DNA from: Candidatus Saccharimonadales bacterium
GTDB taxonomy: Bacteria; Patescibacteriota; Saccharimonadia; Saccharimonadales; UBA10212
Assembly: GCA_035717985.1 (NCBI GenBank)
Contig: DASTHW010000016.1
Span: 65,859 to 129,858 of the forward strand
DNA: 64,000 nt
Direction: 5' to 3'
The position numbers and the translations under genes are program-made. The notes under the pieces were generated by a model. It saw only the letters and a program-made list of their open reading frames with translations. It had not been told where the DNA came from and did no database searches. Numbering within the stretch: the first letter of the stretch is position 1; each line of letters starts with the position of its first letter. This document shows, in pieces, positions 4,010-51,581 of this stretch.

Positions 4010-7000
4010 CAAAGTCTATTAAAGTACGCAAAGTTGTTCTGCTGGGCTCGGGCGGACTGCGGATTGGCCAGGCTGGCGAGTTTGATTATTCTGGTTCGCA
4101 GGCCATCAAAGCTCTGCGCGAAGCCGGCGTTTACACGGTGCTTGTTAATCCGAATATTGCTACCGTCCAAACAGATACCGACATGGCCGATAAGGTCTAC
4201 TTTCAGCCGCTCAGCTTAACTAGCGTCACTAAAATTTTGCAAAAAGAGCGGCCGGATAGTATTTTGCTGAGCTTTGGCGGACAGACGGCCTTGAATTTGG
4301 GATTAGAACTTAACGATAAGGGCATCCTTGAAAAACTGGGTATTAGGGTGCTGGGCACACCGGTGCGCTCTATTAAATTAACTGAAGACCGCGAGCTATT
4401 TAAGCACACTCTTACTAAAATCGATGTCAAGACCGCCAAAAGCCAGGCTGTCTATGATTTAAAGTCAGCCCTACGCGCGGCTAACAAAATTGGCTATCCG
4501 GTCATGATGCGCTCCGGCTTCTCTCTGGGCGGACTGGGCTCTGGGCGGATCGATAATCCAGCTATGCTCAAAAAACGGGCCAGCGAGGCACTATCGGCCG
4601 TACCGCAGATTTTAATCGAAGAGTTCTTAGCCGGCTGGAAGGAAGTTGAGTATGAAGTGGTCCGCGATGGCAGTGGCAATGCTATCACCGTTTGCAATAT
4701 GGAGAATCTCGATCCTATGGGTATCCACACCGGCGAAAGCATTGTGGTGGCGCCCAGCCAGACGCTGACCAACGAGGAATATCACCGCCTGCGCGAAATC
4801 GCCATCAAAACTATTAGCCATCTAGGTATTATCGGTGAGTGCAATATCCAATACGCCTTGAACCCGGCTAACGGCGACTACCGCGTGATCGAGGTCAATG
4901 CCCGCCTGAGCCGCTCCAGTGCTTTGGCCTCCAAGGCCACCGGCTATCCCCTGGCTTACGTAGCCGCCAAGCTGGCCCTGGGAGCTAGTCTAAATGAACT
5001 AAAAAATTCGGTTACCGGCACTACGCCAGCCTTTTTCGAGCCGGCCCTTGATTATATAGCCGTTAAAATCCCCCGCTGGGATTTAAGTAAGCTAAAATCT
5101 AGCGACCACCAAATCGGTTCGGAAATGAAAAGTGTCGGCGAGGTGATGGCCCTGGGCCGGTCCTTCCCTGAGGCTCTGCAAAAAGGCCTGAGGATGTGCA
5201 ATATAGGGGCCCAAGGCTTAACCGACCATCCTTTCACCTTCGGCGACCCCTTGAGCGAAGTGGCCGACGCCACCGATAGACGAATCTTTGCGCTTTATGA
5301 AGCGCTGGCTCAAGGCGCCAGCGTTGAGCGCCTGCACCGGCTATCGGGCATTGATAGCTGGTTTTTGCAACACCTAGCCTTAATTACTGATTTTTATAGC
5401 TTTTTGTCAGCTAAACCTTTGAGTAAAGAGTTGTTAGCTGAGGCGAAAGAGCTGGGCTTTTCAGACAGTGTGATAGCTAAAGCTAAAAATCTCAGTGAGA
5501 CCGCCGTCAAAAGTAAACGTCTGGCCTGGGGTATACGCCCGGTGGTTAAGCAAATTGATACGCTAGCCGGCGAATTTGAGGCCGCTACCAACTACCTTTA
5601 TATGACTTACCACGGCCAGCAGGACGACGTAAAACCACTGAGCAAGAAAGCCATCACCGTAGTCGGCTCGGGGCCATACTGTATCGGCTCGTCGGTAGAG
5701 TTTGACTGGTGTGCCGTAAATACGGCCAAGACACTGAGCGAAAACGGCTGGCAGACCATTATGGTCAACTCTAACCCAGAGACCGTGTCTACGGATTTTG
5801 ACCGTTCTAGCCGGCTTTATTTTGAAGAACTAACCCTGGAGCGGCTACTTGATATTGCTGAGTTTGAAAAACCCCATGGCCTAATCGTATCGGTCGGCGG
5901 ACAGATTGCTAACAATTTAGCTTTGCCTCTAGCCCGTGCCGGCCAGAACATTCTGGGCACGCCGGCCGAGCAAATAGACCGCGCCGAGGACCGCCAAAAA
6001 TTCTCCAGTCTGCTAAATAAGCTTGGTATTGATCAACCGCTTTGGCAAGAAGTTACCAGCCTGGCTAGTGCTAAAAAGTTTGCCGCCCGGGTAGGCTACC
6101 CGGTATTAATTAGACCATCATATGTGCTGTCCGGTGGCGCTATGAATGTGGTGGCCGGTGAGGAGGATCTCGAAATTTATCTGCAGGCGGCCGCTAAATT
6201 ATCACCAGAACATCCGGTAGTAATATCGCAGTTTATCAGTCATTCCAAAGAACTAGAAATTGACGGCGTCGCCGAGAACGGCCAGCTGGTTATTTACGCT
6301 ATTTCCGAGCATGTTGAGAATGCCGGCGTGCACTCCGGCGACGCTACAGTAGTTTTCCCGGCTCAGACGCTTTATTTAGAGACGGTCCGCCGGGCAAAGC
6401 AAATTACCCGCCAAATTGTCAAAAATCTAAATATCACTGGACCATTTAACATCCAGTTCATTGCCAAAGATAACGAACTAAAAGTTATTGAATGCAATGT
6501 GCGGGCTTCGCGGTCCTTCCCTTTTGTTTCTAAAGTCTCTGGCCATAATTTTATCCAGATTGCCGCCGAGGCCATGCTGGGAATCAAAAACGAGCGCCAT
6601 TATCAGACCTTGGAATACGACTACGTGGGCGTAAAGAGCCCGCAGTTTTCCTATAATCGGCTTAAGGGTGCCGACCCGGTGGCCGGCGTAGAAATGGCAA
6701 GCACCGGCGAAGTGGCCTGTTTTGGCGATAATTTGCAGGAGGCTTTTTATGCTTCATGGCTGGCTACCGAGCAAAAAGTCAGGGGTAAAAACCTACTCAT
6801 TAGTCTACCGGCCGAACAACAGCCCCGCTTCATCGACGAACTTGCTCAGCTAATTAAACAGGGCTGGCAAGTCTTTGCCACCCCAGGTACCCATAAATTT
6901 ATGGCCGAGTTTAACCTAGCGACTAAGCCGCTTTATAAAATCAGTGAGAAGAAAGAGCCCAGTGTGCTGAGCGCCATCATCGGCCAAAAGCTGGATTTGA

Positions 7001-7194
7001 TTATCAATGTGCCCTCCACGGCTACCCTTAATAGTGACGGCTATAAAATCCGCCGGGCTGGAATAGATAATCACATTCCGCTAATGACCAACCCGGAGAC
7101 TGCCCGGCTTTTGTTACGATGCCTCGCTGAAAACACACAAGCCAGCGCCGAGCCGCATTCTTGGCAGGAATATTTAAGTTTAAATAATGCCTAA
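4006..7194 (+). CDS. carB: Carbamoyl-phosphate synthase large subunit
   Basis: 1062 aa with LGSGGLRIGQAGEFDYSG at the N-terminus, duplicated ATP-grasp halves (second half VGSGPYCIGSSVEFDW) and a C-terminal MGS-like allosteric domain. Confidence 0.97.
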   Translation: MTKSIKVRKVVLLGSGGLRIGQAGEFDYSGSQAIKALREAGVYTVLVNPNIATVQTDTDMADKVYFQPLSLTSVTKILQKERPDSILLSFGGQTALNLGLELNDKGILEKLGIRVLGTPVRSIKLTEDRELFKHTLTKIDVKTAKSQAVYDLKSALRAANKIGYPVMMRSGFSLGGLGSGRIDNPAMLKKRASEALSAVPQILIEEFLAGWKEVEYEVVRDGSGNAITVCNMENLDPMGIHTGESIVVAPSQTLTNEEYHRLREIAIKTISHLGIIGECNIQYALNPANGDYRVIEVNARLSRSSALASKATGYPLAYVAAKLALGASLNELKNSVTGTTPAFFEPALDYIAVKIPRWDLSKLKSSDHQIGSEMKSVGEVMALGRSFPEALQKGLRMCNIGAQGLTDHPFTFGDPLSEVADATDRRIFALYEALAQGASVERLHRLSGIDSWFLQHLALITDFYSFLSAKPLSKELLAEAKELGFSDSVIAKAKNLSETAVKSKRLAWGIRPVVKQIDTLAGEFEAATNYLYMTYHGQQDDVKPLSKKAITVVGSGPYCIGSSVEFDWCAVNTAKTLSENGWQTIMVNSNPETVSTDFDRSSRLYFEELTLERLLDIAEFEKPHGLIVSVGGQIANNLALPLARAGQNILGTPAEQIDRAEDRQKFSSLLNKLGIDQPLWQEVTSLASAKKFAARVGYPVLIRPSYVLSGGAMNVVAGEEDLEIYLQAAAKLSPEHPVVISQFISHSKELEIDGVAENGQLVIYAISEHVENAGVHSGDATVVFPAQTLYLETVRRAKQITRQIVKNLNITGPFNIQFIAKDNELKVIECNVRASRSFPFVSKVSGHNFIQIAAEAMLGIKNERHYQTLEYDYVGVKSPQFSYNRLKGADPVAGVEMASTGEVACFGDNLQEAFYASWLATEQKVRGKNLLISLPAEQQPRFIDELAQLIKQGWQVFATPGTHKFMAEFNLATKPLYKISEKKEPSVLSAIIGQKLDLIINVPSTATLNSDGYKIRRAGIDNHIPLMTNPETARLLLRCLAENTQASAEPHSWQEYLSLNNA

Positions 7195-7218
7195 AACTAG
7201 TATGCTGATGGAGTAATT

Positions 7219-8316
7219 ATGGCAAACAAGAATCTAGTCAAACCGTTTTATGATCCGGCCAAATCTTATGATGATAATTTCGATAACGGTCCGTTTGGTG
7301 CCAGCAAGGTAGAGCCTTATGTTAATCAGGGCGAGCCGCAGTTTAGCTTTCTAGGCATTCCGTTATATGCGCCTTTTGGTATTGCCGCCGGCCCCTTGCT
7401 TAACAGCCGGTTCGTAAAATTTGCGCTGGAAGCCGGCTTTGACGTACCGGTTTATAAAACTCAAAGGAGCATTCAGTTCCCGGCTAACCAATTTCCTAAT
7501 GTTCTTTATATCAATATTGACGGCGACCTAACGCTCGATAGGGCGGCTAAGCCGCTAATCGGCAGACGCTCAGCGAGTAAGCCGGTCAAAGAGTTAACTA
7601 TAACCAATTCTTTTGGTAATCCGTCGCGCGGGCCGGATTTTTGGACAACCGATTTAAAAAAAGTCCGGGCCTGTCAGGGCAAAGGTCAATTAGTTATTGG
7701 CAGTGCCGTAGGCAGTATTAAAGAGGGGTTCTCTAGCGAAGATTATTTTGACGACTTTGCCCTGGCGGCTGAAATGGTAACCAAAACCGGTGTGGATGTA
7801 GTCGAAATCAATCTATCTTGCCCTAATGTAGCCACCGAGGGCGTTCTCTGCTATACGCTAAACTCGGTAGTAGCAATCTGCCAGAAGGTTAGAGCCAAAA
7901 TCGGCAATAAGCCGCTAGTCATTAAGCTAGGCTATTTTTCGCCTGAGCAGGAGCCACTATTGGTGAAGGTTCTAAAAGAGGCAGCCGACTATATAAATGC
8001 CATTTCGGCTATCAATACCATACCGGCGCCGGTGGTTGATGAATCGGGTCGGCAGGCTCTGCCCGGCCCCAACCGGCTGAGCTCGGGTATTTGCGGCCAC
8101 GCCATTAAATGGGCTGGTCTGGATATGGTCAGCCGGCTGGCCGCTATCCGCAAAAAGCTAGGTCTTAAATTTGAGATTATTGGCGTGGGCGGCGTTATGA
8201 CGCCGGCAGATTTTAAAGACTACCGCGGTGCCGGCGCTGATCTAGTTCAGACTGCTACCGGCGCCATGTGGAACCCCGGGCTAGCCGCCGAAATTAAGAA
8301 AAGCCTGAAAGTTTAA
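7219..8316 (+). CDS. pyrD: Dihydroorotate dehydrogenase, class 1-like
   Basis: EINLSCPNV (class 1 catalytic Cys context), PLVIKLGYF and IIGVGGV are TIM-barrel DHOD motifs. There is an unusual ~45-aa N-terminal extension. A GGAG SD lies before the ATG. Confidence 0.85.
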   Translation: MANKNLVKPFYDPAKSYDDNFDNGPFGASKVEPYVNQGEPQFSFLGIPLYAPFGIAAGPLLNSRFVKFALEAGFDVPVYKTQRSIQFPANQFPNVLYINIDGDLTLDRAAKPLIGRRSASKPVKELTITNSFGNPSRGPDFWTTDLKKVRACQGKGQLVIGSAVGSIKEGFSSEDYFDDFALAAEMVTKTGVDVVEINLSCPNVATEGVLCYTLNSVVAICQKVRAKIGNKPLVIKLGYFSPEQEPLLVKVLKEAADYINAISAINTIPAPVVDESGRQALPGPNRLSSGICGHAIKWAGLDMVSRLAAIRKKLGLKFEIIGVGGVMTPADFKDYRGAGADLVQTATGAMWNPGLAAEIKKSLKV

Positions 8317-45644: not shown

Positions 45645-46454
45645 TTATAGATTAATCCCGTGGAACATAACAGCAAAGGCGATGGCATTATTAAGCGCGT
45701 GCACCATCATGCCCGCATAAAGTGCGCCGGTTTTTTCCCGAAGATAGACTAACACCAAAGATAATATAAATGTATTAACACCGGCGGCCCAAAGCAGGCC
45801 CGGCCCGGCGCCGGTCAGCAGATGGGCGGCCCCAAATAGCAGGCTGGTTATAAGGCCGGCCTGCACGAAACTTAGCCGCGCCCGCAGGCCCGAAAACAGA
45901 TAACCGCGCATTAGTGTTTCTTCGCCAATCGGCGGCAAAACGACTAGCGCGATAAAAGCTAGCACGTCGCTGGCTGGACCATGGAGATTATTAAAGCCCA
46001 GATCCTGAGTGCCATTGTTGTAACCTTTAAAAATGGCGCTGGCAATTATACTAACGATAATCAAAAGGATATAAAAAACTAAAAAGCCGACACCGGCCCG
46101 GCCAACATCGCCTAATTTTGGCCGCCGGCCAAGGCCTATAAATGGTAGCTTTAAGCCCCGCTTTTTAACTGCCCAGATGGCTAGTAGTGCCGATAAACCC
46201 TCAGCTAAAAGCACATAAAAGAACTGGGCCGTTACCGAATTATCTAAACTGCCGCTGGAAGCATGCGCCAGGCCCAGAATTATTTCTAAAATAAGGGCGG
46301 CAATAAACTGGCTGACGATGAAAATAACCACCACCACGCCAAAGACAAACCATGGACCGCCTAGGTCGCTAGGCGGCTGAGCTCGCAGTGGTTTGAACAA
46401 TTTTAGTTTTCGCTTTTGAGCGGGCGAATCTTTTTGTTTAGCGCCGGACATCAA
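45645..46454 (-). CDS. CPBP (CAAX protease/bacteriocin-processing) family intramembrane metalloprotease
   Basis: EETLMRGY, FGAAH and HALNN motifs in a polytopic membrane protein. Confidence 0.8.
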   Translation of the reverse strand: MMSGAKQKDSPAQKRKLKLFKPLRAQPPSDLGGPWFVFGVVVVIFIVSQFIAALILEIILGLAHASSGSLDNSVTAQFFYVLLAEGLSALLAIWAVKKRGLKLPFIGLGRRPKLGDVGRAGVGFLVFYILLIIVSIIASAIFKGYNNGTQDLGFNNLHGPASDVLAFIALVVLPPIGEETLMRGYLFSGLRARLSFVQAGLITSLLFGAAHLLTGAGPGLLWAAGVNTFILSLVLVYLREKTGALYAGMMVHALNNAIAFAVMFHGINL

Positions 46455-47796
46455 CTATGGTTATTAGGACAACCAGAGCCAGCAGTAAAGCCATGCCAGT
46501 GGCTACGGCTCTTTCCTCTGCCAGCTTGCTAAGTGGCCGGCGAAGGATGAGCCTGGAGAATAAAATCATGAACAATCGTCCACCGTCCAGCGCCGGAATC
46601 GGTAAAACATTGAAGACGGCTAAGCTCAGCGAGACAACGGCGATTATGGCCAGCATATATTGATAGCCAATTAGACCGGCACCCCAAAGGATTTTAACTA
46701 TAATTACCGGGCCGCCCACCTGGCTGGTGGCCTCGGCCTGACCGTTTTGACGAGCTTGACTGTTACCGGTCGTCGCCCCGGCAATTAGTGAGCCCAGGCC
46801 GGCTAGGGCGTGGCCGATCCCTAAAACTGTTAATTTAATCAACTGCCAGGTAAAGCCAATAGCTGTAATCGGCGCGCTCCAGCCGGAGCGTGTAAAAGTT
46901 AGCTGATAAGGCTCGACGCCTAAATAGCCCTCAGCATTTAGAGTAACTTTTTTAGTCAGCTCTTGACCGGCATTCTTATATTTGATGAGCACCGGCGTGC
47001 CGGAAAGATACTGCGCCGTCTTTAAAAAGTCTGACGAGTTGTTAATATGATAGATCCGCGGCTTTTGGCCCGGCACCTCAATACTGGTTACCTGAGAAGC
47101 TGATTTTAAGCCGGCCTGCTTAAGTAAATTGGCCGTAATATCGGTTTTGGAGCGCAGTTTTACTGTTTTAGATTCCGCTTTAGTGTTGTGAGTATAGTTT
47201 AGCCTCACAGTTTCGCCGGCAAATTCATCAGTGGCCTGCTTTAGCTTGTCGGCGGTATTGGTTTTTATAACTCGGCCGCCGCTATCTATAGAGGTAATCT
47301 TGTCGAGCGAACTCAGGCCGGCCCTGGCCGCGGGAGAATTCTTCTCGACATAGATGGCTAAAACATCTTGTTTACTGATGTGGGTATCGCTTTTAACACT
47401 ATACTGGCCTTGCCCAAATTCGTTTTTAGTAATCAGCTGGGGCATGCCGATTAAGGCCAAAATGGTCAATATAACCACCGCCGCCACTAAATTGGCAAAG
47501 ACTCCGGCCAGCAAAATACGGGTTTTGGCACCCAGGCTGGCCGAACCAAAACTGCCGTGAGAGCGGTCACCGTCGTGCTCCCCTTTAAGCTTGACAAAGC
47601 CGCCCACCGGAAGCCAGTTAAGACTTAAGACCATGCCGCTAGTTAGCCGCTTGGCCCAAGCCCGCGGCGGAAAGCCGAGGCCGAATTCTTCTACCGATAC
47701 ACCGCTAAGCCTGGCGGCTAAAAAATGACCGCCTTCGTGCACCAGCACCAAGCCGGCGAACAGTAAAATAGCAATGATAAATAAGAAGATTTGCAT
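46438..47796 (-). CDS. rseP: Site-2 (M50) intramembrane zinc metalloprotease RseP/RasP
   Basis: HEGGHF in TM1, PDZ region(s) and PIPALDGG in the C-terminal TM. The start is probably ATG 47796; the track start is 47814. Confidence 0.88.
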   Translation of the reverse strand: MQIFLFIIAILLFAGLVLVHEGGHFLAARLSGVSVEEFGLGFPPRAWAKRLTSGMVLSLNWLPVGGFVKLKGEHDGDRSHGSFGSASLGAKTRILLAGVFANLVAAVVILTILALIGMPQLITKNEFGQGQYSVKSDTHISKQDVLAIYVEKNSPAARAGLSSLDKITSIDSGGRVIKTNTADKLKQATDEFAGETVRLNYTHNTKAESKTVKLRSKTDITANLLKQAGLKSASQVTSIEVPGQKPRIYHINNSSDFLKTAQYLSGTPVLIKYKNAGQELTKKVTLNAEGYLGVEPYQLTFTRSGWSAPITAIGFTWQLIKLTVLGIGHALAGLGSLIAGATTGNSQARQNGQAEATSQVGGPVIIVKILWGAGLIGYQYMLAIIAVVSLSLAVFNVLPIPALDGGRLFMILFSRLILRRPLSKLAEERAVATGMALLLALVVLITIVDVRR

Positions 47797-47847
47797 TACT
47801 TTGCATTCTATCATGCCGCCTGGGCCGGACAGCTGATAATTAAGGGG

Positions 47848-48411
47848 TTAGATGGTCAGAATTTCCTGCTCTTTAGCTTTAGCCAGAGCTTCAACCTCTT
47901 GTTTTTGCTCAGCCAGCAGATCATCGACCTGTTTCTCTAGACGCAAACGGTCATCTTTGCTAATCTGTTTGTCTTTCTCGGCCTGCTCGGTGCGGCGCAT
48001 AGCCTCATGGCGGATTTGGCGGCCGCTAATTAAACATTCTTCCAGCTTCTGACCCACAATTTTCACCATCTGGCCTCTGGTCTCCTCTGTCAGAGGCGGA
48101 ATTTGGATCCGCACGACCCGGCCGTCGTCAGCCGGATTCAGTCCCAGGGACTGGTCGTCTCTAATGGCGGTTGAGATGGCTTTTAAATTAGCCGGGTCAA
48201 ACGGCGAAACCTGAATTAACTGAGCTTCGGGCGTAGTGATAGTGGCGACTGCTTTTAAGGGCATAGTTTGCCCGTAGGCCTCTACCATTACCCCGTCCAG
48301 CATTCCGGGGTGGGCCCGGCCGGTGCGGATCTTACTCAGCTCCTCACGAAGGTGGTCCGAAGTAGCGGCTAATCTACGCTTAGTCTCCTCGACTGCCTGA
48401 TTTGAATTCAT
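47848..48411 (-). CDS. frr: Ribosome recycling factor
   Basis: KIRTGRAHPGMLDGVMVEAYG...LGLNP...IRIQIPPLTEE. I chose the start at ATG 48411, giving 187 aa; the track TTG at 48426 lies inside a TATAAT box. Confidence 0.95.
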   Translation of the reverse strand: MNSNQAVEETKRRLAATSDHLREELSKIRTGRAHPGMLDGVMVEAYGQTMPLKAVATITTPEAQLIQVSPFDPANLKAISTAIRDDQSLGLNPADDGRVVRIQIPPLTEETRGQMVKIVGQKLEECLISGRQIRHEAMRRTEQAEKDKQISKDDRLRLEKQVDDLLAEQKQEVEALAKAKEQEILTI

Positions 48412-48417
48412 TTTAAA

Positions 48418-48423
48418 ATTATA
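48418..48423 (-). promoter_or_regulatory. -10 box (TATAAT) 6 nt upstream of the frr ATG; candidate leaderless promoter
   Basis: The minus strand reads ttgTATAATtttaaaATG. The -35 is poor. Confidence 0.4.
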
Positions 48424-48478
48424 CAATATTCACTACCCTTGAAGAATAAGCATTTAAATGTTATAAATTATTCTGGCC

Positions 48479-48507
48479 TTGACACTATAACCCTGCCAAC
48501 TTTAAGT
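48479..48507 (+). promoter_or_regulatory. Sigma70-like promoter of cassette module 1
   Basis: TTGACA (48479-48484), a 17-nt spacer, then TTAAGT (48502-48507). AAAGGAGA SD at 48523-48530. Confidence 0.45.
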
Positions 48508-48533
48508 CTCGCACCTATTGTCAAAGGAGAAAA

Positions 48534-48719
48534 ATGTCCTCAGCCGACTGGCTCAAGGTGGCCGGGACCTACGCCGTCTTGGCGTTGGCCGGATTCAAGA
48601 CGTACAGGTCTCTGGAGCGCGGCGAAATCGTCCGGTCCATGAGCCTGGCGAGCGTGCTGGCCTCTGTCGGGGTCTGCGTCTACTCAGCGTTGGCGGCAAT
48701 TGCCGTTACGAACTCCTAG
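48534..48719 (+). CDS. Small two-TM membrane protein (61 aa)
   Basis: ATG 4 nt after AAAGGAGA, GC3-rich codons, and two hydrophobic helices (WLKVAGTYAVLALAGF / LASVLASVGVCVYSALAAIAV) joined by a basic loop. Confidence 0.6.
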   Translation: MSSADWLKVAGTYAVLALAGFKTYRSLERGEIVRSMSLASVLASVGVCVYSALAAIAVTNS

Positions 48720-48726
48720 GGAGGGG

Positions 48727-48807
48727 ATGATGAGCCGTAGTGAAACGGCCCTCCGCTGGCTGATGGTGATGGTAGCCCTGGCTACCATCCTCGTCCTGGC
48801 CCGTTAG
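48727..48807 (+). CDS. Micro-ORF, 26-aa single-TM peptide
   Basis: Not in the ORF track (<60 aa). GGGAGGGG SD lies right before ATGATG. It translates to MMSRSETALRWLMVMVALATILVLAR and has GC3-rich codons. Confidence 0.45.
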   Translation: MMSRSETALRWLMVMVALATILVLAR

Positions 48808-48909
48808 CGGACAGGCGCTGGAGGTGTTAACCCTCCGGCAAGCGGCCGACACTTAGTCGGTCCCGGGTAAGTGCGGGGTTGAAGCGCGTCTTAGAGCGCT
48901 CCCCCGCTG

Positions 48910-48954
48910 GCGGCATGAACCGCTCGCAGTATTTTTTACTCGCGGTCATGCCGC
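48910..48954 (+). terminator. Long imperfect inverted repeat; putative terminator of cassette module 1
   Basis: GCGGCATGA-ACCGC-TCGCAGTA / TACT-CGCGG-TCATGCCGC gives about 18 bp with three bulges and a TTTTT loop, followed by CTCTTTCATT. Confidence 0.4.
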
Positions 48955-48979
48955 TCTTTCATTAAATAATCCCTGCCAT

Positions 48980-49008
48980 TTGATAATGGCTCAATAAAAT
49001 TTTATAAT
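48980..49008 (+). promoter_or_regulatory. Near-consensus sigma70 promoter of cassette module 2
   Basis: TTGATA (48980-48985), a 17-nt spacer, then TATAAT (49003-49008), within a ~30% GC spacer. Confidence 0.65.
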
Positions 49009-49075
49009 TCGCCTCAGTTTACGTCCCCGTACACCCATGCGAGCGTAGGCTCGCTCCTCAACAAGGAGGTACCTC

Positions 49076-49729
49076 TTGACGGCTATCGCCGTACCAGCTC
49101 CGCAGGAGCCGGTTGATCCGGTCAGAGCGTTCATCGACCGCACTGCCGGCCGGCTGTTCGCGGCCGCGGGCTTCACGCCCAACCAGGTGACCGTTCTGGG
49201 CACCCTGGTGGCCCTGAGCGGGTGCGCGGTCTGGACCCAGCAGACGCACTCGCCCAAGCTGTACTGGGTGGGCTGGGGCCTGACGCTCGGCGGCACGGGG
49301 CTCGACGCTCTTGACGGTTCAGTCGCGCGGGTGAGAAACATGCACACCCGGTTCGGCGGCCTGCTGGACTCGCTGACCGACCGGGTCGTCGAGACTGCCA
49401 TCTGGGCGGCTCTGTTCTGGCTCTGCTCCGCCGACTGGGGCCGGCTGGGCTGTCTGCTGGCCCTGGCTGGTTCGTTCATGGTCAGCTACACGCGGGCCAA
49501 GGCGGAGCTGGACGGCCTGCGCGGCACGGCTGGCTGGGGATCGCGCCAAGTGCGCCTGCCCCTGCTGGCTGTCTGCGTGCTGGCGGCCCACTGGACCGGC
49601 TACAACTGGGTCGGCTGGCCGGTGGCCGTGCTGGCCTGGCTGACGGTCATCCAGCGCGCCGGTTCGATCAATCGTCAACTGAGCCCGTCCGACGATCCCA
49701 CTAGCTGGGGTCACGGTGGACAGCTCTAA
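49076..49729 (+). CDS. CDP-alcohol phosphatidyltransferase (PIP-synthase/PgsA-like, ~6 TM)
   Basis: TTG start 6 nt after AAGGAGG (49063-49069). It has the full motif D77-x2-D80-G81-x2-A84-R85-x8-G94-x3-D98-x3-D102 (LDALDGSVARVRNMHTRFGGLLDSLTD, nt 49304-49381). Confidence 0.9.
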   Translation: MTAIAVPAPQEPVDPVRAFIDRTAGRLFAAAGFTPNQVTVLGTLVALSGCAVWTQQTHSPKLYWVGWGLTLGGTGLDALDGSVARVRNMHTRFGGLLDSLTDRVVETAIWAALFWLCSADWGRLGCLLALAGSFMVSYTRAKAELDGLRGTAGWGSRQVRLPLLAVCVLAAHWTGYNWVGWPVAVLAWLTVIQRAGSINRQLSPSDDPTSWGHGGQL

Positions 49730-49744
49730 CCGAGAGGAGGGCTT

Positions 49745-49942
49745 TTGAGTCCGTTCGAACGCTGGCTGATCGCCGTCAGCTTGAACCTGCTCGGTGCGGC
49801 GTCGGCCATCTTCTGGCGTCAGTGCCGAAACGGCGGCGTGGTGTCCCTTGGGCGGTTCTCCGTCAGCGGGGTGGTGCCAGCTCTGGTGGGCGCCGGCGGA
49901 GTCGCTCTCATGACGGGCGACATCCTCTACATCTACGCATAG
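49745..49942 (+). CDS. Small two-TM membrane protein (65 aa)
   Basis: TTG start 4 nt after GAGGAGG (49734-49740). Two helices (WLIAVSLNLLGAASAIFW / VVPALVGAGGVALMTGDILYIY) joined by a basic loop, with GC3-rich codons. Confidence 0.55.
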   Translation: MSPFERWLIAVSLNLLGAASAIFWRQCRNGGVVSLGRFSVSGVVPALVGAGGVALMTGDILYIYA

Positions 49943-49955
49943 AGAAGGAGGAGAC

Positions 49956-50060
49956 GTGCTGGAGTGGCTGTGGGCCAGCCTGGTGTGGTCCGGTGTCGGG
50001 CTGGCGTTTGGCGGCCCGCTCGCCGCCCACGCCCTGCTGGAAGCTCAGCCGGGGCCATGA
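49956..50060 (+). CDS. Micro-ORF, 34-aa single-TM peptide
   Basis: Not in the ORF track. GTG start 4 nt after AAGGAGGAG. It translates to MLEWLWASLVWSGVGLAFGGPLAAHALLEAQPGP, with almost every third codon position G/C. Confidence 0.45.
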   Translation: MLEWLWASLVWSGVGLAFGGPLAAHALLEAQPGP

Positions 50061-50085
50061 CGCCGGCTTTCCGGTACCTCCAAGC

Positions 50086-50152
50086 AGAACCCCGCCCGAG
50101 GCACGCCTCGGGCGGGGTTCTCCGTGCGGCCGATGGGTACGGCCGCTTTTTT
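50086..50152 (+). terminator. Tandem terminators closing the cassette
   Basis: Hairpin 1 is a perfect 16-bp stem, AGAACCCCGCCCGAGG-CACG-CCTCGGGCGGGGTTCT (50086-50121), with no U-tract. Hairpin 2 is GCGGCCG-ATGGGTA-CGGCCGC (50126-50146) followed by T6 (50147-50152). The pair lies 9 nt from the convergent tsf stop. Confidence 0.8.
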
Positions 50153-50160
50153 AATTTAGA

Positions 50161-50760
50161 TTAGCTAACTTCGCCTAAAACCATGCGCGAAAAGCGCCTT
50201 ACAACAATGTTTTCGCCCAGTTTAGCAATGTGCTCTTTAATGTAATCGCCAACCTTAATATCTGGGTTTTTGATGAAGGCCTGATCACTCAAGCACTTCT
50301 CGGCAAAATATTTGGCTAGCTGACCCTCGACTATTTTATCTATCATTTCGGATGGTTTACCCTCGGCTTTGGCCTTGTCGCTAAACTCAGCTGAGACTGT
50401 CTTTTTGACGCTGGCCGGCACGTCGCCTGCTGAAATATATTCTGGCCCAGCGGCCGCTATGTGCAGGCAAATATCTTTAACTAACTCCTTAAATTCATCA
50501 GTCTTAGCTACAAAATCGGTCTCGCAGTTTACCTCGCAGATGACACCAATGCGGCCGTCGTGCACATAGGAGCCGATTAAGCCGGCCCGGGCCTCGCGTT
50601 CGCCGCGCTTCTCGGCTTTGGTTAGGCCTTTTTTACGCATTGCTGAGAGAGCTTTGTCGAAATCACCTTTAGCCTCTACTAGGGCCTGCTTAGCGTCGGT
50701 TATGCCGACGCCGGTCAGGCTCCGCAGGCGTTTAATTTCGTCGATTGATATGTCGGCCAT
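50161..50760 (-). CDS. tsf: Elongation factor Ts (short ~200-aa form)
   Basis: N-terminal UBA-like IKRLRSLTGVGITDAKQALVEAKGDFDKALSAMRKKG and VNCETDFVAKT. Its start overlaps the rpsB stop (TAATG). Confidence 0.95.
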   Translation of the reverse strand: MADISIDEIKRLRSLTGVGITDAKQALVEAKGDFDKALSAMRKKGLTKAEKRGEREARAGLIGSYVHDGRIGVICEVNCETDFVAKTDEFKELVKDICLHIAAAGPEYISAGDVPASVKKTVSAEFSDKAKAEGKPSEMIDKIVEGQLAKYFAEKCLSDQAFIKNPDIKVGDYIKEHIAKLGENIVVRRFSRMVLGEVS

Positions 50761-51581
50761 TAGTCTTTGCCCTCTTTTACGGCTGGGGCTTTAGCTTTGG
50801 CCGCTGGTTTAGCCGGTTCTTCTTTAGTGTTTGCTTTAGCTACCGGCTTGGCTGGTTTATCGGCATCCGGCTTCTCGGCGGCTGGTTTTTTAACTTTGGC
50901 TTTGCCTTCTTCGATAGCCTGAGCCACACAGTCTAGTATTAAATTAATGGTCTTAGCGGCATCGTCATTAGCCGGAATCGGAAACTTTATAGATGTTGGG
51001 TCGGTGTTGGTATCTACTAGAGCAATTACTGGGATTTTTAGCTTATTAGCTTCACGTACAGCGTTAACATCGTTGAGTATATCCACCACGAAGACGGCTC
51101 CTGGTTTGGCAGCCATCTCTTTAATGCCCCCGTAAAGCTTGTTCATCTCATCAATTTCTTCGCTCATCCGCTGAACTTCCAGCTTGCTGTAGCGGTTAGC
51201 CAGCTCGCCGCTTATCATGCGGCTTTCCAGATCTTTTAGATGACGGATACGTGAGCCGATAGTAGTTTGGTTGGTCAGCATACCGCCTAGCCAACGCTGG
51301 GAAACATAGGGCATACCGGCGGCCTCGGCCACTTCTTTAACCTTGTCTTTAGCCTGACGCTTGGTGCTAACCAATAAAACTTGCTTCCCGGCGGCGGCTG
51401 TCTCGCGGATAAAGCTTAGAGCCTCATCTAACGCGTTCACAGTTTTGGTTAAATCAATAATGTGGCTACCGTCGCGCTTGCTGTGAATATAGGGCGCCAT
51501 TTTGGGGTGCCAGCGGCTGGTTTTGTGCCCAAAGTGAGCCCCGGCCTCTAGCAATTCTTTAATATCTACGGCATTAGCCAT
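50760..51581 (-). CDS. rpsB: 30S ribosomal protein S2 with a K/A/P-rich C-terminal tail
   Basis: LLEAGAHFGHKTSRWHPKM..., with a ~50-aa tail KVKKPAAEKPDADKPAKPVAKANTKEEPAKPAAKAKAPAVKEGKD. Confidence 0.97.
   Translation of the reverse strand: MANAVDIKELLEAGAHFGHKTSRWHPKMAPYIHSKRDGSHIIDLTKTVNALDEALSFIRETAAAGKQVLLVSTKRQAKDKVKEVAEAAGMPYVSQRWLGGMLTNQTTIGSRIRHLKDLESRMISGELANRYSKLEVQRMSEEIDEMNKLYGGIKEMAAKPGAVFVVDILNDVNAVREANKLKIPVIALVDTNTDPTSIKFPIPANDDAAKTINLILDCVAQAIEEGKAKVKKPAAEKPDADKPAKPVAKANTKEEPAKPAAKAKAPAVKEGKD

Follow-up and report, generated by a model that had tools for sequence, protein, structure and literature searches.

Small membrane protein genes beside a phosphatidyltransferase in the frr-tsf gap of a Candidatus Saccharimonadales genome: two putative independent cassettes

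Tiny hydrophobic proteins that are encoded beside a membrane partner and inherited together with it are known from several bacterial complexes, among them CydX, CydS and CioY of the cytochrome bd type, KdpF of KdpFABC and AcrZ of AcrB; these proteins have a single transmembrane (TM) helix and a proven association with the partner. Such operon-encoded small subunits diverge fast, and positional equivalents like CydX, CydS and CioY can be without detectable similarity (PMC12648545; PMC4325964). No described small subunit of any CDP-alcohol phosphatidyltransferase was found in a non-exhaustive literature search. To this enzyme family belong phosphatidylinositol phosphate (PIP) synthases, such as PgsA1 of Mycobacterium tuberculosis (6H53/6H59) and PIPS of M. 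kansasii (6WM5), and archaetidylinositol phosphate (AIP) synthases, which have a length of ~200-220 amino acids (aa) and the full motif D-x2-DG-x2-AR...G-x3-D-x3-D. Here, we analyze a 64-kb stretch of DNA (the window) from a metagenome-assembled genome (MAG) of Candidatus Saccharimonadales, an ultra-small bacterium of the candidate phyla radiation (CPR). In a 1.7-kb GC-rich island between frr and tsf/rpsB, all three on the minus strand, it holds a gene for such a transferase and four open reading frames (ORFs) for hydrophobic micro-proteins, ORF1 and ORF2 before the enzyme and ORF3 and ORF4 behind it. The initial annotation had read this layout as an enzyme bracketed by two related pairs, each of a 2-TM and a 1-TM peptide. 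The observation is real, but the duplicated-pair interpretation is wrong and the symmetry is incidental. With a probability of roughly 60%, we favor two cassettes in a variable frr-tsf locus, in which ORF3 would be a small partner of the transferase and ORF1/ORF2 an independent module.

We propose that in Saccharimonadales of one family-level group the frr-tsf gap forms a variable locus with one or two cassettes, each of which would start with a promoter-leader element of ~100 nucleotides (nt), end with a hairpin terminator and encode small integral membrane proteins with or without an enzyme of the lipid head-group type. In the window, cassette A (48436-48955; ORF1 and ORF2) and cassette B (48974-50156; transferase, ORF3 and ORF4) would stand in tandem. 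The element (~100-120 nt) reads TTGA-n-AAT, a 17-nt spacer, TATAAT or TATAGT, a leader hairpin GCGAGC-loop-GCUCGC, CACCT and a Shine-Dalgarno (SD) sequence, and its hairpin is kept across loci via G-U wobble or compensatory changes. The promoter of copy 2 (TTGATA-17-TATAAT, 48980-49008) agrees with the sigma-70 consensus at 11 of 12 positions. Further copies lie in related loci, for which we use numbers with the prefix L: L001 (5876-5996), L003 (139-259), L004 (5727-5850 and 6963-7082), L085 (10-115) and L170 (313-427). Counting L169, which has the same element as the L170 strain, there are nine placements, all at cassette starts (nhmmer E 5e-20 to 1.7e-9). Since the nhmmer model was built from eight of them, which match by construction, and L169 is ~99% identical to L170, this search shows only the absence of copies elsewhere, none having been found in the rest of the 64-kb window or in the other searched loci. 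Cassette A ends in a structured region, the last hairpin of which (48909-48955) is followed by UCUUUCAUU and is terminator-like; the region may be just a terminator region, or a structured 3' untranslated region or small RNA. In cassette B the transferase and ORF3 share one predicted promoter and one terminator region. Judged by these signals, ORF1/ORF2 and transferase/ORF3(/ORF4) are predicted to be separate transcription units, and each is found independently in other genomes.

Indeed, the transferase module occurs without ORF1 and ORF2 in L001, L003, L004 and L085, and L170 has the ORF1 module but no transferase, the order there being frr, promoter-leader, ORF1 homologue, an SD-led 28-aa 1-TM ORF, a 58-aa 2-TM ORF, a further promoter, an Exo_endo_phos protein and tsf. 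Because the ORF1 family is found at a locus that lacks the transferase (L170 and its strain variant L168), ORF1 is not a bracket of that enzyme and its module would work independently of it. The symmetric appearance of the island would come from the juxtaposition of two independent cassettes and not from duplication.

An origin of the two pairs by duplication, after which the diverged paralogues would serve the transferase as one complex or regulatory set, would account for the agreement of the two sides in size order, topology and SD-led layout; moreover, both units start with a related promoter-leader, and formally one transferase copy could have been lost after a tandem duplication. The sequences themselves, however, compare at the level of chance. 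In Smith-Waterman comparisons with shuffles, ORF1 against ORF3 gave z -0.14 and ORF2 against ORF4 z 0.31, and hhalign gave a probability of 0.7%. When family hidden Markov models (HMMs) were scored against shuffles, the best value was p = 0.018, for the ORF1-family HMM on the ORF3 of the window; the orthologues of ORF3 were without signal, and the value fails a correction for 12 tests. The loop R-x2-R-x-G-x-(I/V)-V, which had been taken as a hint of weak paralogy, fits ORF3 as written, but ORF1 (R-S-L-E-R-G-E-I-V) needs a shift by one residue; the likeness is no better than that of shuffled sequences, and in ORF3 the motif lies in an insertion of 13-14 aa that is absent from its orthologues. 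Apart from short GC-rich repeats of the kind expected by chance, 48534-48955 and 49745-50156 are without nucleotide similarity, and a search of the window for further paralogues of the micro-ORFs found none. Together with the separate occurrence of the two modules, this makes paralogy the least probable of the explanations considered. Duplication of the transferase unit followed by a deletion was also considered as the origin of ORF1 and ORF2 and was rejected, ORF1 having homologues of its own behind the same type of promoter in L170.

ORF1 is a real conserved gene of a new family under purifying selection. A word-seeded protein search recovered only the query itself, for ORF1 and for ORF3. 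An exhaustive phmmer search of 1.84 billion representatives found the ORF1 homologues P0124 (with P0126) and P0125 (E 4.5e-5 and 1.7e-4; 49 and 45% identity); a third match, the 783-aa repeat protein P0123, was dismissed as spurious. Homologues are 43-52% identical, reach shuffle z values of 18-31 by Smith-Waterman and share 20 invariant residues across three lineages, including G-x-I-x-RSMSLA-x3-AS-x-GV-x-VYS. The ratio of nonsynonymous to synonymous rates (omega, NG86 method) is 0.21-0.44, with synonymous sites near saturation. The homologues occupy the frr-tsf gap too (L167, L170). Single-sequence AlphaFold2 predicts a helical hairpin (helices 4-28 and 38-60; confidence score, pLDDT, 73). 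That ORF1 is functional we hold to be highly probable, and ORF1, probably with ORF2, would form a separate small helical-hairpin membrane assembly, an autonomous module.

The coupling of ORF3 to the transferase carries the other half of the argument. The transferase matches PF01066 with 51.9 bits (cut-off 22; E 1.5e-13), and its signature with the four catalytic aspartates is complete, D77-A-L-D80-G-S-V-A-R...G94-G-L-L-D98-S-L-T-D102 aligning to D68/D71/D89/D93 of PgsA1. A profile of its clade matches M. tuberculosis PgsA1 (6H53) with E 5.6e-25. In PgsA1, residues R94, S132, Y133, K135, R137, R152 and R155 line the inositol-phosphate pocket (PMC6506517). Their equivalents in the window are R103, S137, Y138, R140, K142, R157 and R160; for R195 of PgsA1 the nearest basic residue is R200 (R or K in five of five clade members), one position off in the HMM alignment. 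The best NCBIfam models are those for AIP synthase (NF040950; 119.7 bits, cut-off 180) and PIP synthase (NF045883; 86 bits, cut-off 170), and both equivalog cut-offs are missed. The enzyme is PIP-synthase-like, and its substrate would be of that kind. It forms a clade with four close relatives, the only ones among 5.8 billion proteins (70, 64, 46 and 42% identity), and all 100 of 100 bootstraps recover the five as a monophyletic group. Scanning genome and metagenome contigs with the profile of the transferase added no clade member, identity there being at most 41%.

In all five clade members the transferase is followed by a 2-TM ORF of 52-65 aa. The ORF begins 15 nt past the transferase stop in the window and 13 nt past it in both L001 and L003; those of L085 and L004 overlap the stop by 4 nt. 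Among distant transferase homologues, none of 69 evaluable loci has a tightly linked small hydrophobic ORF. A 2-TM micro-ORF thus accompanies the transferase specifically in this clade. The initial annotation had named co-occurrence with this enzyme as a check on its four peptides; it is borne out for this ORF, and the ORF1 family is also found without the enzyme. By tblastn (E 2e-4 and 7e-4) and shuffle tests (z ~11), ORF3 is orthologous to ORFs in L001 (6653-6811) and L003 (929-1087), which keep the frame, the SD, the N-terminal ER-x-LIA and the C-terminal GD-x-x-Y-x-Y. It is predicted to fold into a helical hairpin (helices 3-29 and 35-64; pLDDT 77, single-sequence AlphaFold2). ORF3, too, is a real conserved gene, and we consider its function probable, with slightly less assurance than for ORF1. 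By analogy with known small subunits, ORF3 is a candidate membrane subunit or regulator of the PIP-synthase-like enzyme: it would be made together with the transferase and, as a small accessory subunit, attach to it within the membrane, acting in stabilization, assembly or regulation. The physical partnership, the substrate of the enzyme and any physiological role are inferred.

ORF2 and ORF4 are less firmly placed. The SD of ORF2 (GGAGGGG, 48720-26) directly abuts ATG 48727 (0 nt; 2 from the GGAGG core) and lies 3 nt (5 from the core) before ATG 48730; with its better spacing the latter may be the true start, giving 25 aa. In L170 an SD-led 28-aa 1-TM ORF (664-750) follows the ORF1 homologue, so that the 2-TM plus 1-TM arrangement of ORF1 and ORF2 recurs by position. 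A function of ORF2 is in our view slightly favored. ORF4 is intact in this genome only and appears to be lineage-restricted and decaying, which leaves its function rather doubtful. Its start (49955-49980, VLEWLWASL) is 77% identical over 26 nt to 49627-49652, which falls within the final TM helix of the transferase (VLAWLTVIQ); chance among GC-rich Leu, Trp and Ala codons is the probable reason, and birth of ORF4 by partial duplication could be the alternative.

Could some or all of the micro-ORFs be non-functional, as chance ORFs or decaying remnants carried along with the transferase in GC-rich DNA? Such DNA does give long spurious ORFs, as the 162-aa antisense shadow ORF at 48991-49479 illustrates; ORF4 has marginal hydropathy and is broken or missing in other genomes, ORF2 is without a sequence homologue and ORF3 has an omega of 0.5-1.0. 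The constraint on ORF1, the conserved frame, SD and end motifs of ORF3, and the SD-led 1-TM ORF behind the ORF1 homologue in L170 speak against it. Furthermore, all four ORFs have a coding-type GC phase and an SD of their own, whereas the ~140 nt after ORF2 (48808-48948), which are non-coding, have no such phase. The coordinates, lengths and translations first given for them are exact, and a GGAG-type SD precedes each: GGAG (48526-29) lies 4 nt upstream of ATG 48534 of ORF1, GGAGG (49736-40) 4 nt upstream of TTG 49745 of ORF3, and GGAGGAG (49947-53) 2 nt upstream of GTG 49956 of ORF4. The plus strand of the island (48430-50160) has seven SD-like clusters, five of which directly precede ORF1, ORF2, the transferase, ORF3 and ORF4. 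In the proposed frames the GC content at third codon positions (GC3) is 0.84, 0.74, 0.82 and 0.83 for ORF1 to ORF4, with the second position lowest or tied lowest, and the transferase has the same pattern (0.67/0.56/0.85). Hydropathy likewise bears out two, one, two and one hydrophobic segments, marginally so for ORF4. We therefore regard a lack of function across the micro-ORFs as unlikely, although ahead of the other rivals.

Several points weigh against our preferred reading of two cassettes with ORF3 as a partner of the transferase. ORF3 evolves fast: omega is 0.5 between L001 and L003, on only 13 changed codons, and ~1 between the window and L001, near saturation. Sequence homology of the downstream 2-TM ORF is shown for three of the five clade members; those of L085 (58 aa) and L004 (55 aa) match ORF3 in position and topology only, without detectable similarity, and one partner family across all five would rest partly on analogy. 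When these two ORFs and the 58-aa ORF of L170 were compared with ORF3, the best single pair reached z 4.3 and profile p values were 0.03-0.9. ORF2 has no sequence homologue, and against the 28-aa ORF of L170 it gave z -0.5. As for ORF4, in L003 the SD, an ATG and ~25 homologous codons survive, with TAG in place of the window's TGG at codon 6, and L001 has lost the ORF through a clean deletion that runs from the ORF3 stop to the terminator; the conserved reading frames looked for in homologues are found for ORF1 and ORF3 and not for ORF4, where the initial annotation had counted stops against its proposal. The carriers are few (four close transferase relatives), and the contigs of the locus are metagenomic and in part short; that of L167 is cut upstream, which leaves the absence of the transferase there unproven. 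Finally, the persistently high GC3 of the cassette genes is not accounted for.

Table 1. Features of the frr-tsf gap and its borders (positions in the window).
Feature	Position	Strand	Basis
frr (ribosome recycling factor), left border of the variable locus	47848-48426	-	PF01765, E 5e-53
Promoter-leader copy 1 (-35/-10, 3' half of leader hairpin, CACCT, SD; predicted to drive ORF1)	48436-48533 (nhmmer 48436-48534)	+	nhmmer E 3.8e-12
ORF1, 61-aa 2-TM hairpin micro-protein	48534-48719	+	homologues, omega, GC3 0.84, predicted hairpin
ORF2, 26-aa 1-TM micro-ORF, SD-led, 7 nt past the ORF1 stop	48727-48807	+	SD, GC phase 0.59/0.44/0.74
Structured 3' region of cassette A, four hairpins	48820-48955	+	minimum free energy -68.7 kcal/mol, z -4.3; terminator scan
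Promoter-leader copy 2 (leader hairpin GCGAGC-GUAG-GCUCGC, SD AAGGAGG)	48974-49075 (nhmmer 48974-49072)	+	nhmmer E 1e-14
CDP-alcohol phosphatidyltransferase, PIP/AIP-synthase-like, 217 aa, TTG start	49076-49729	+	PF01066
ORF3, 65-aa 2-TM hairpin micro-protein	49745-49942	+	orthologues in L001, L003; NCBI: hypothetical protein VFP35_04495
ORF4, 34-aa marginal 1-TM micro-ORF, intact in this genome only	49956-50060	+	SD, GC phase
Predicted cassette B terminators: 16-bp GC hairpin, then GCGGCCG-loop-CGGCCGC + T run	50086-50156	+	terminator scan; z -5.2
tsf (EF-Ts), right border of the variable locus	50161-50760	-	PF00889, E 7e-35

The composition of the island suggests another origin, recent horizontal transfer of the whole from a high-GC Actinomycetota host, with the micro-ORFs coming from the donor. 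GC content in 200-nt windows (48500-50199) is 0.56-0.72, with a minimum of 0.505 at the AT-rich promoter (~48900-49099), compared with ~0.49 in the rest of the window. GC3 is 0.50-0.56 in frr, tsf and rpsB and 0.74-0.85 in the micro-ORFs and the transferase; the transferase (0.85) is an extreme outlier among the 56 ORFs of at least 150 aa in the window (median 0.53, next genuine gene 0.60). Outside the clade, the best tblastn matches to the transferase come from Actinomycetes, Thermoleophilia and Gaiellales MAGs (36-41% identity), and a neighbor-joining tree places the clade beside Actinomycetota. Sister support, however, is only 28 of 100, Bathyarchaeotal sequences are about as close, and the AIP-synthase model outscores the bacterial PIP-synthase model. 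Five lineages whose housekeeping proteins differ by 22-30% have the island at one and the same site, so that it is not recent. None of the evaluable distant homologue loci, actinobacterial ones included, has the micro-ORFs, and the ORF1 family has ordinary GC3 in L170. A recent transfer appears improbable to us. Cassette GC3 is 0.8-0.95 in the window (49076-50060), L001 (6001-6811), L003 (262-1087) and L004 (5854-7590), compared with ~0.5-0.56 in housekeeping genes, and the bias is much smaller in the cassettes of L170 and L085. Since GC3 stays high in spite of near-saturated synonymous divergence, amelioration has not taken place; the cause may lie in GC-biased gene conversion at a hot spot of recombination or in recurrent exchange from a GC-rich pool.

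The surroundings of the locus vary between genomes. The order frr (-), cassette(s) (+), tsf (-) and rpsB (-) is seen in the window, L001/L002, L003, L004 and L170. The frr flank is also present in L001, L004, L169 and L170 and the tsf flank in L001, L004, L167 and L170; one flank is visible on each of the partial contigs L167-L169, L171 and L172, and L085 shows the cassette only. L086 is 100% identical to the window and uninformative, and the strain variants L168-L172 differ only inside frr and so give no dN/dS information. By frr, tsf and rpsB (70-78% aa identity) the genomes stand at roughly equal distances from one another, yet the transferases of L004 and the window share only 42% identity, which implies that cassette content and divergence are decoupled from genome divergence. 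In L167 a 1-TM ORF, a 33-aa 1-TM ORF, the ORF1 homologue and a terminator precede tsf. In L168, a strain variant of L170, an 82-nt deletion (L168 574-578 versus L170 582-663) truncates the ORF1 homologue to 51 aa and puts its stop over the GTG start of the 28-aa ORF. The Exo_endo_phos protein of L170 (1061-1870; PF03372, an endonuclease/exonuclease/phosphatase (EEP) family phosphatase/nuclease) stands in the place of the transferase with its own promoter.

L004 has further small genes. Between the leader SD and its transferase lies a 38-aa ORF (5854-5970) with a genuine type IV prepilin N_methyl motif (PF07963, E 1.4e-8), a "mini-pilin" of little beyond the signal and a hydrophobic helix. Its second cassette encodes a 125-aa 4-TM protein (7082-7459, plus strand, GC3 0.90) and a 39-aa ORF (7471-7590, plus strand, GC3 0.85); the public gene call there, a 212-aa minus-strand ORF (6989-7627), has no coding GC phase and is probably an antisense shadow. 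The frr-tsf/rseP region of the window (46438-48426 and 50161-51581) and of L001 lacks the usual neighbors pyrH, uppS and cdsA, and uppS is retained beside frr in L004 (4426-5130). Neither a CDP-diacylglycerol synthase nor a myo-inositol-1-phosphate synthase (MIPS) gene was seen within the 64-kb window. An Rfam scan of the island gave no match.

For their membrane lipids, Saccharibacteria and other members of the CPR are believed to rely on their hosts. If our reading is true, a PIP-synthase-like enzyme with a micro-protein partner would offer a testable handle on how an epibiont modifies acquired lipids, and ORF3 would be the first candidate, to our knowledge, for a small subunit of a CDP-alcohol phosphatidyltransferase. 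A literature search on Saccharibacteria with PIP synthase or micro-proteins found nothing relevant. The ORF1 and ORF3 families, which are absent from Pfam, NCBIfam and PHROGs, enlarge the poorly charted set of bacterial small membrane proteins. Operon-encoded small membrane proteins beside a membrane enzyme are already known, and a variable locus bounded by promoter repeats in CPR bacteria is an unusual setting for them. The locus is also a blind spot of annotation: two of the four ORFs fall under calling cut-offs, and in L004 an antisense shadow was called over a membrane gene with a GC3 of 0.90.

In comparison with known systems, the micro-proteins share small size (26-65 aa) and one or two hydrophobic helices with type I toxins and class II (2-TM) holins. 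A toxin, immunity or addiction module, in which membrane-damaging peptides would be paired with small immunity partners, would suit small hairpin and 1-TM peptides in a variable, apparently exchangeable locus, and the second TM helix of ORF1, rich in Ser, Ala and Gly, would suit helix packing or pore formation. In agreement with the initial annotation, which had recognized no known family, none of the micro-proteins has a match in Pfam, NCBIfam, PHROGs (none at or below 0.01) or PADLOC; no phage, lysin or antitoxin-type genes lie near them and IMG/VR viral contigs hold no relatives. Their strong SDs in a polycistronic operon with a constitutive-looking sigma-70-type promoter (by a consensus promoter scan only) are unlike the antisense-RNA layout of type I systems. 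We judge such a module about as improbable as a recent transfer.

The locus is like integron arrays and genomic hot spots in that one fixed site carries short, exchangeable sets of genes that differ between related genomes, each bounded by a repeated element; in the frr-tsf gap this element is the promoter-leader at the 5' end of each cassette. Among the neighbors frr, rseP, tsf and rpsB there is no integrase, attI or attC-like site, no search having been aimed at attC structure; mobile-element signatures in the form of a tRNA or flanking direct repeats were looked for and not found, and cassette exchange, if any, is more likely to proceed by homologous recombination through frr/tsf or the repeated leaders. 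A bolder reading, which we entertain only tentatively, extends this to an undescribed integrase-free cassette array, whose promoter-leader-headed modules would be swapped by recombination and would hold GC3-biased micro-membrane-proteins, a mini-pilin, a 4-TM protein and either a PIP-synthase-like transferase or an EEP phosphatase, with hairpins of the ORF3 type as obligatory subunits. Lipid-auxotrophic epibionts could, if this were so, remodel their membrane or surface, for example with inositol lipids like those of their actinobacterial hosts.

The transferase shares with PIP and AIP synthases the family, the length and the complete motif; the equivalents of the inositol-phosphate pocket are conserved, and its nearest outside homologues adjoin MIPS. 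Indeed, in the nearest one, L006, the transferase is directly followed by MIPS and a glycosyltransferase of family GT4, and of 80 genome loci of distant homologues, 51 have MIPS in the fetched flanks. It differs from these synthases in scoring below the equivalog cut-offs, in having at most 41% identity outside its five-member clade, in its setting in a CPR genome with an extreme GC3 offset, and in its neighborhood, where a 2-TM micro-protein is found instead of MIPS, which was seen at no Saccharimonadales locus examined. Whereas the CydX, KdpF and AcrZ types are single-TM proteins of proven association, ORF3 is a predicted 2-TM hairpin with a putative lipid-synthesis partner; it is like them in being a tiny hydrophobic protein that is encoded beside a membrane partner and co-inherited with it.

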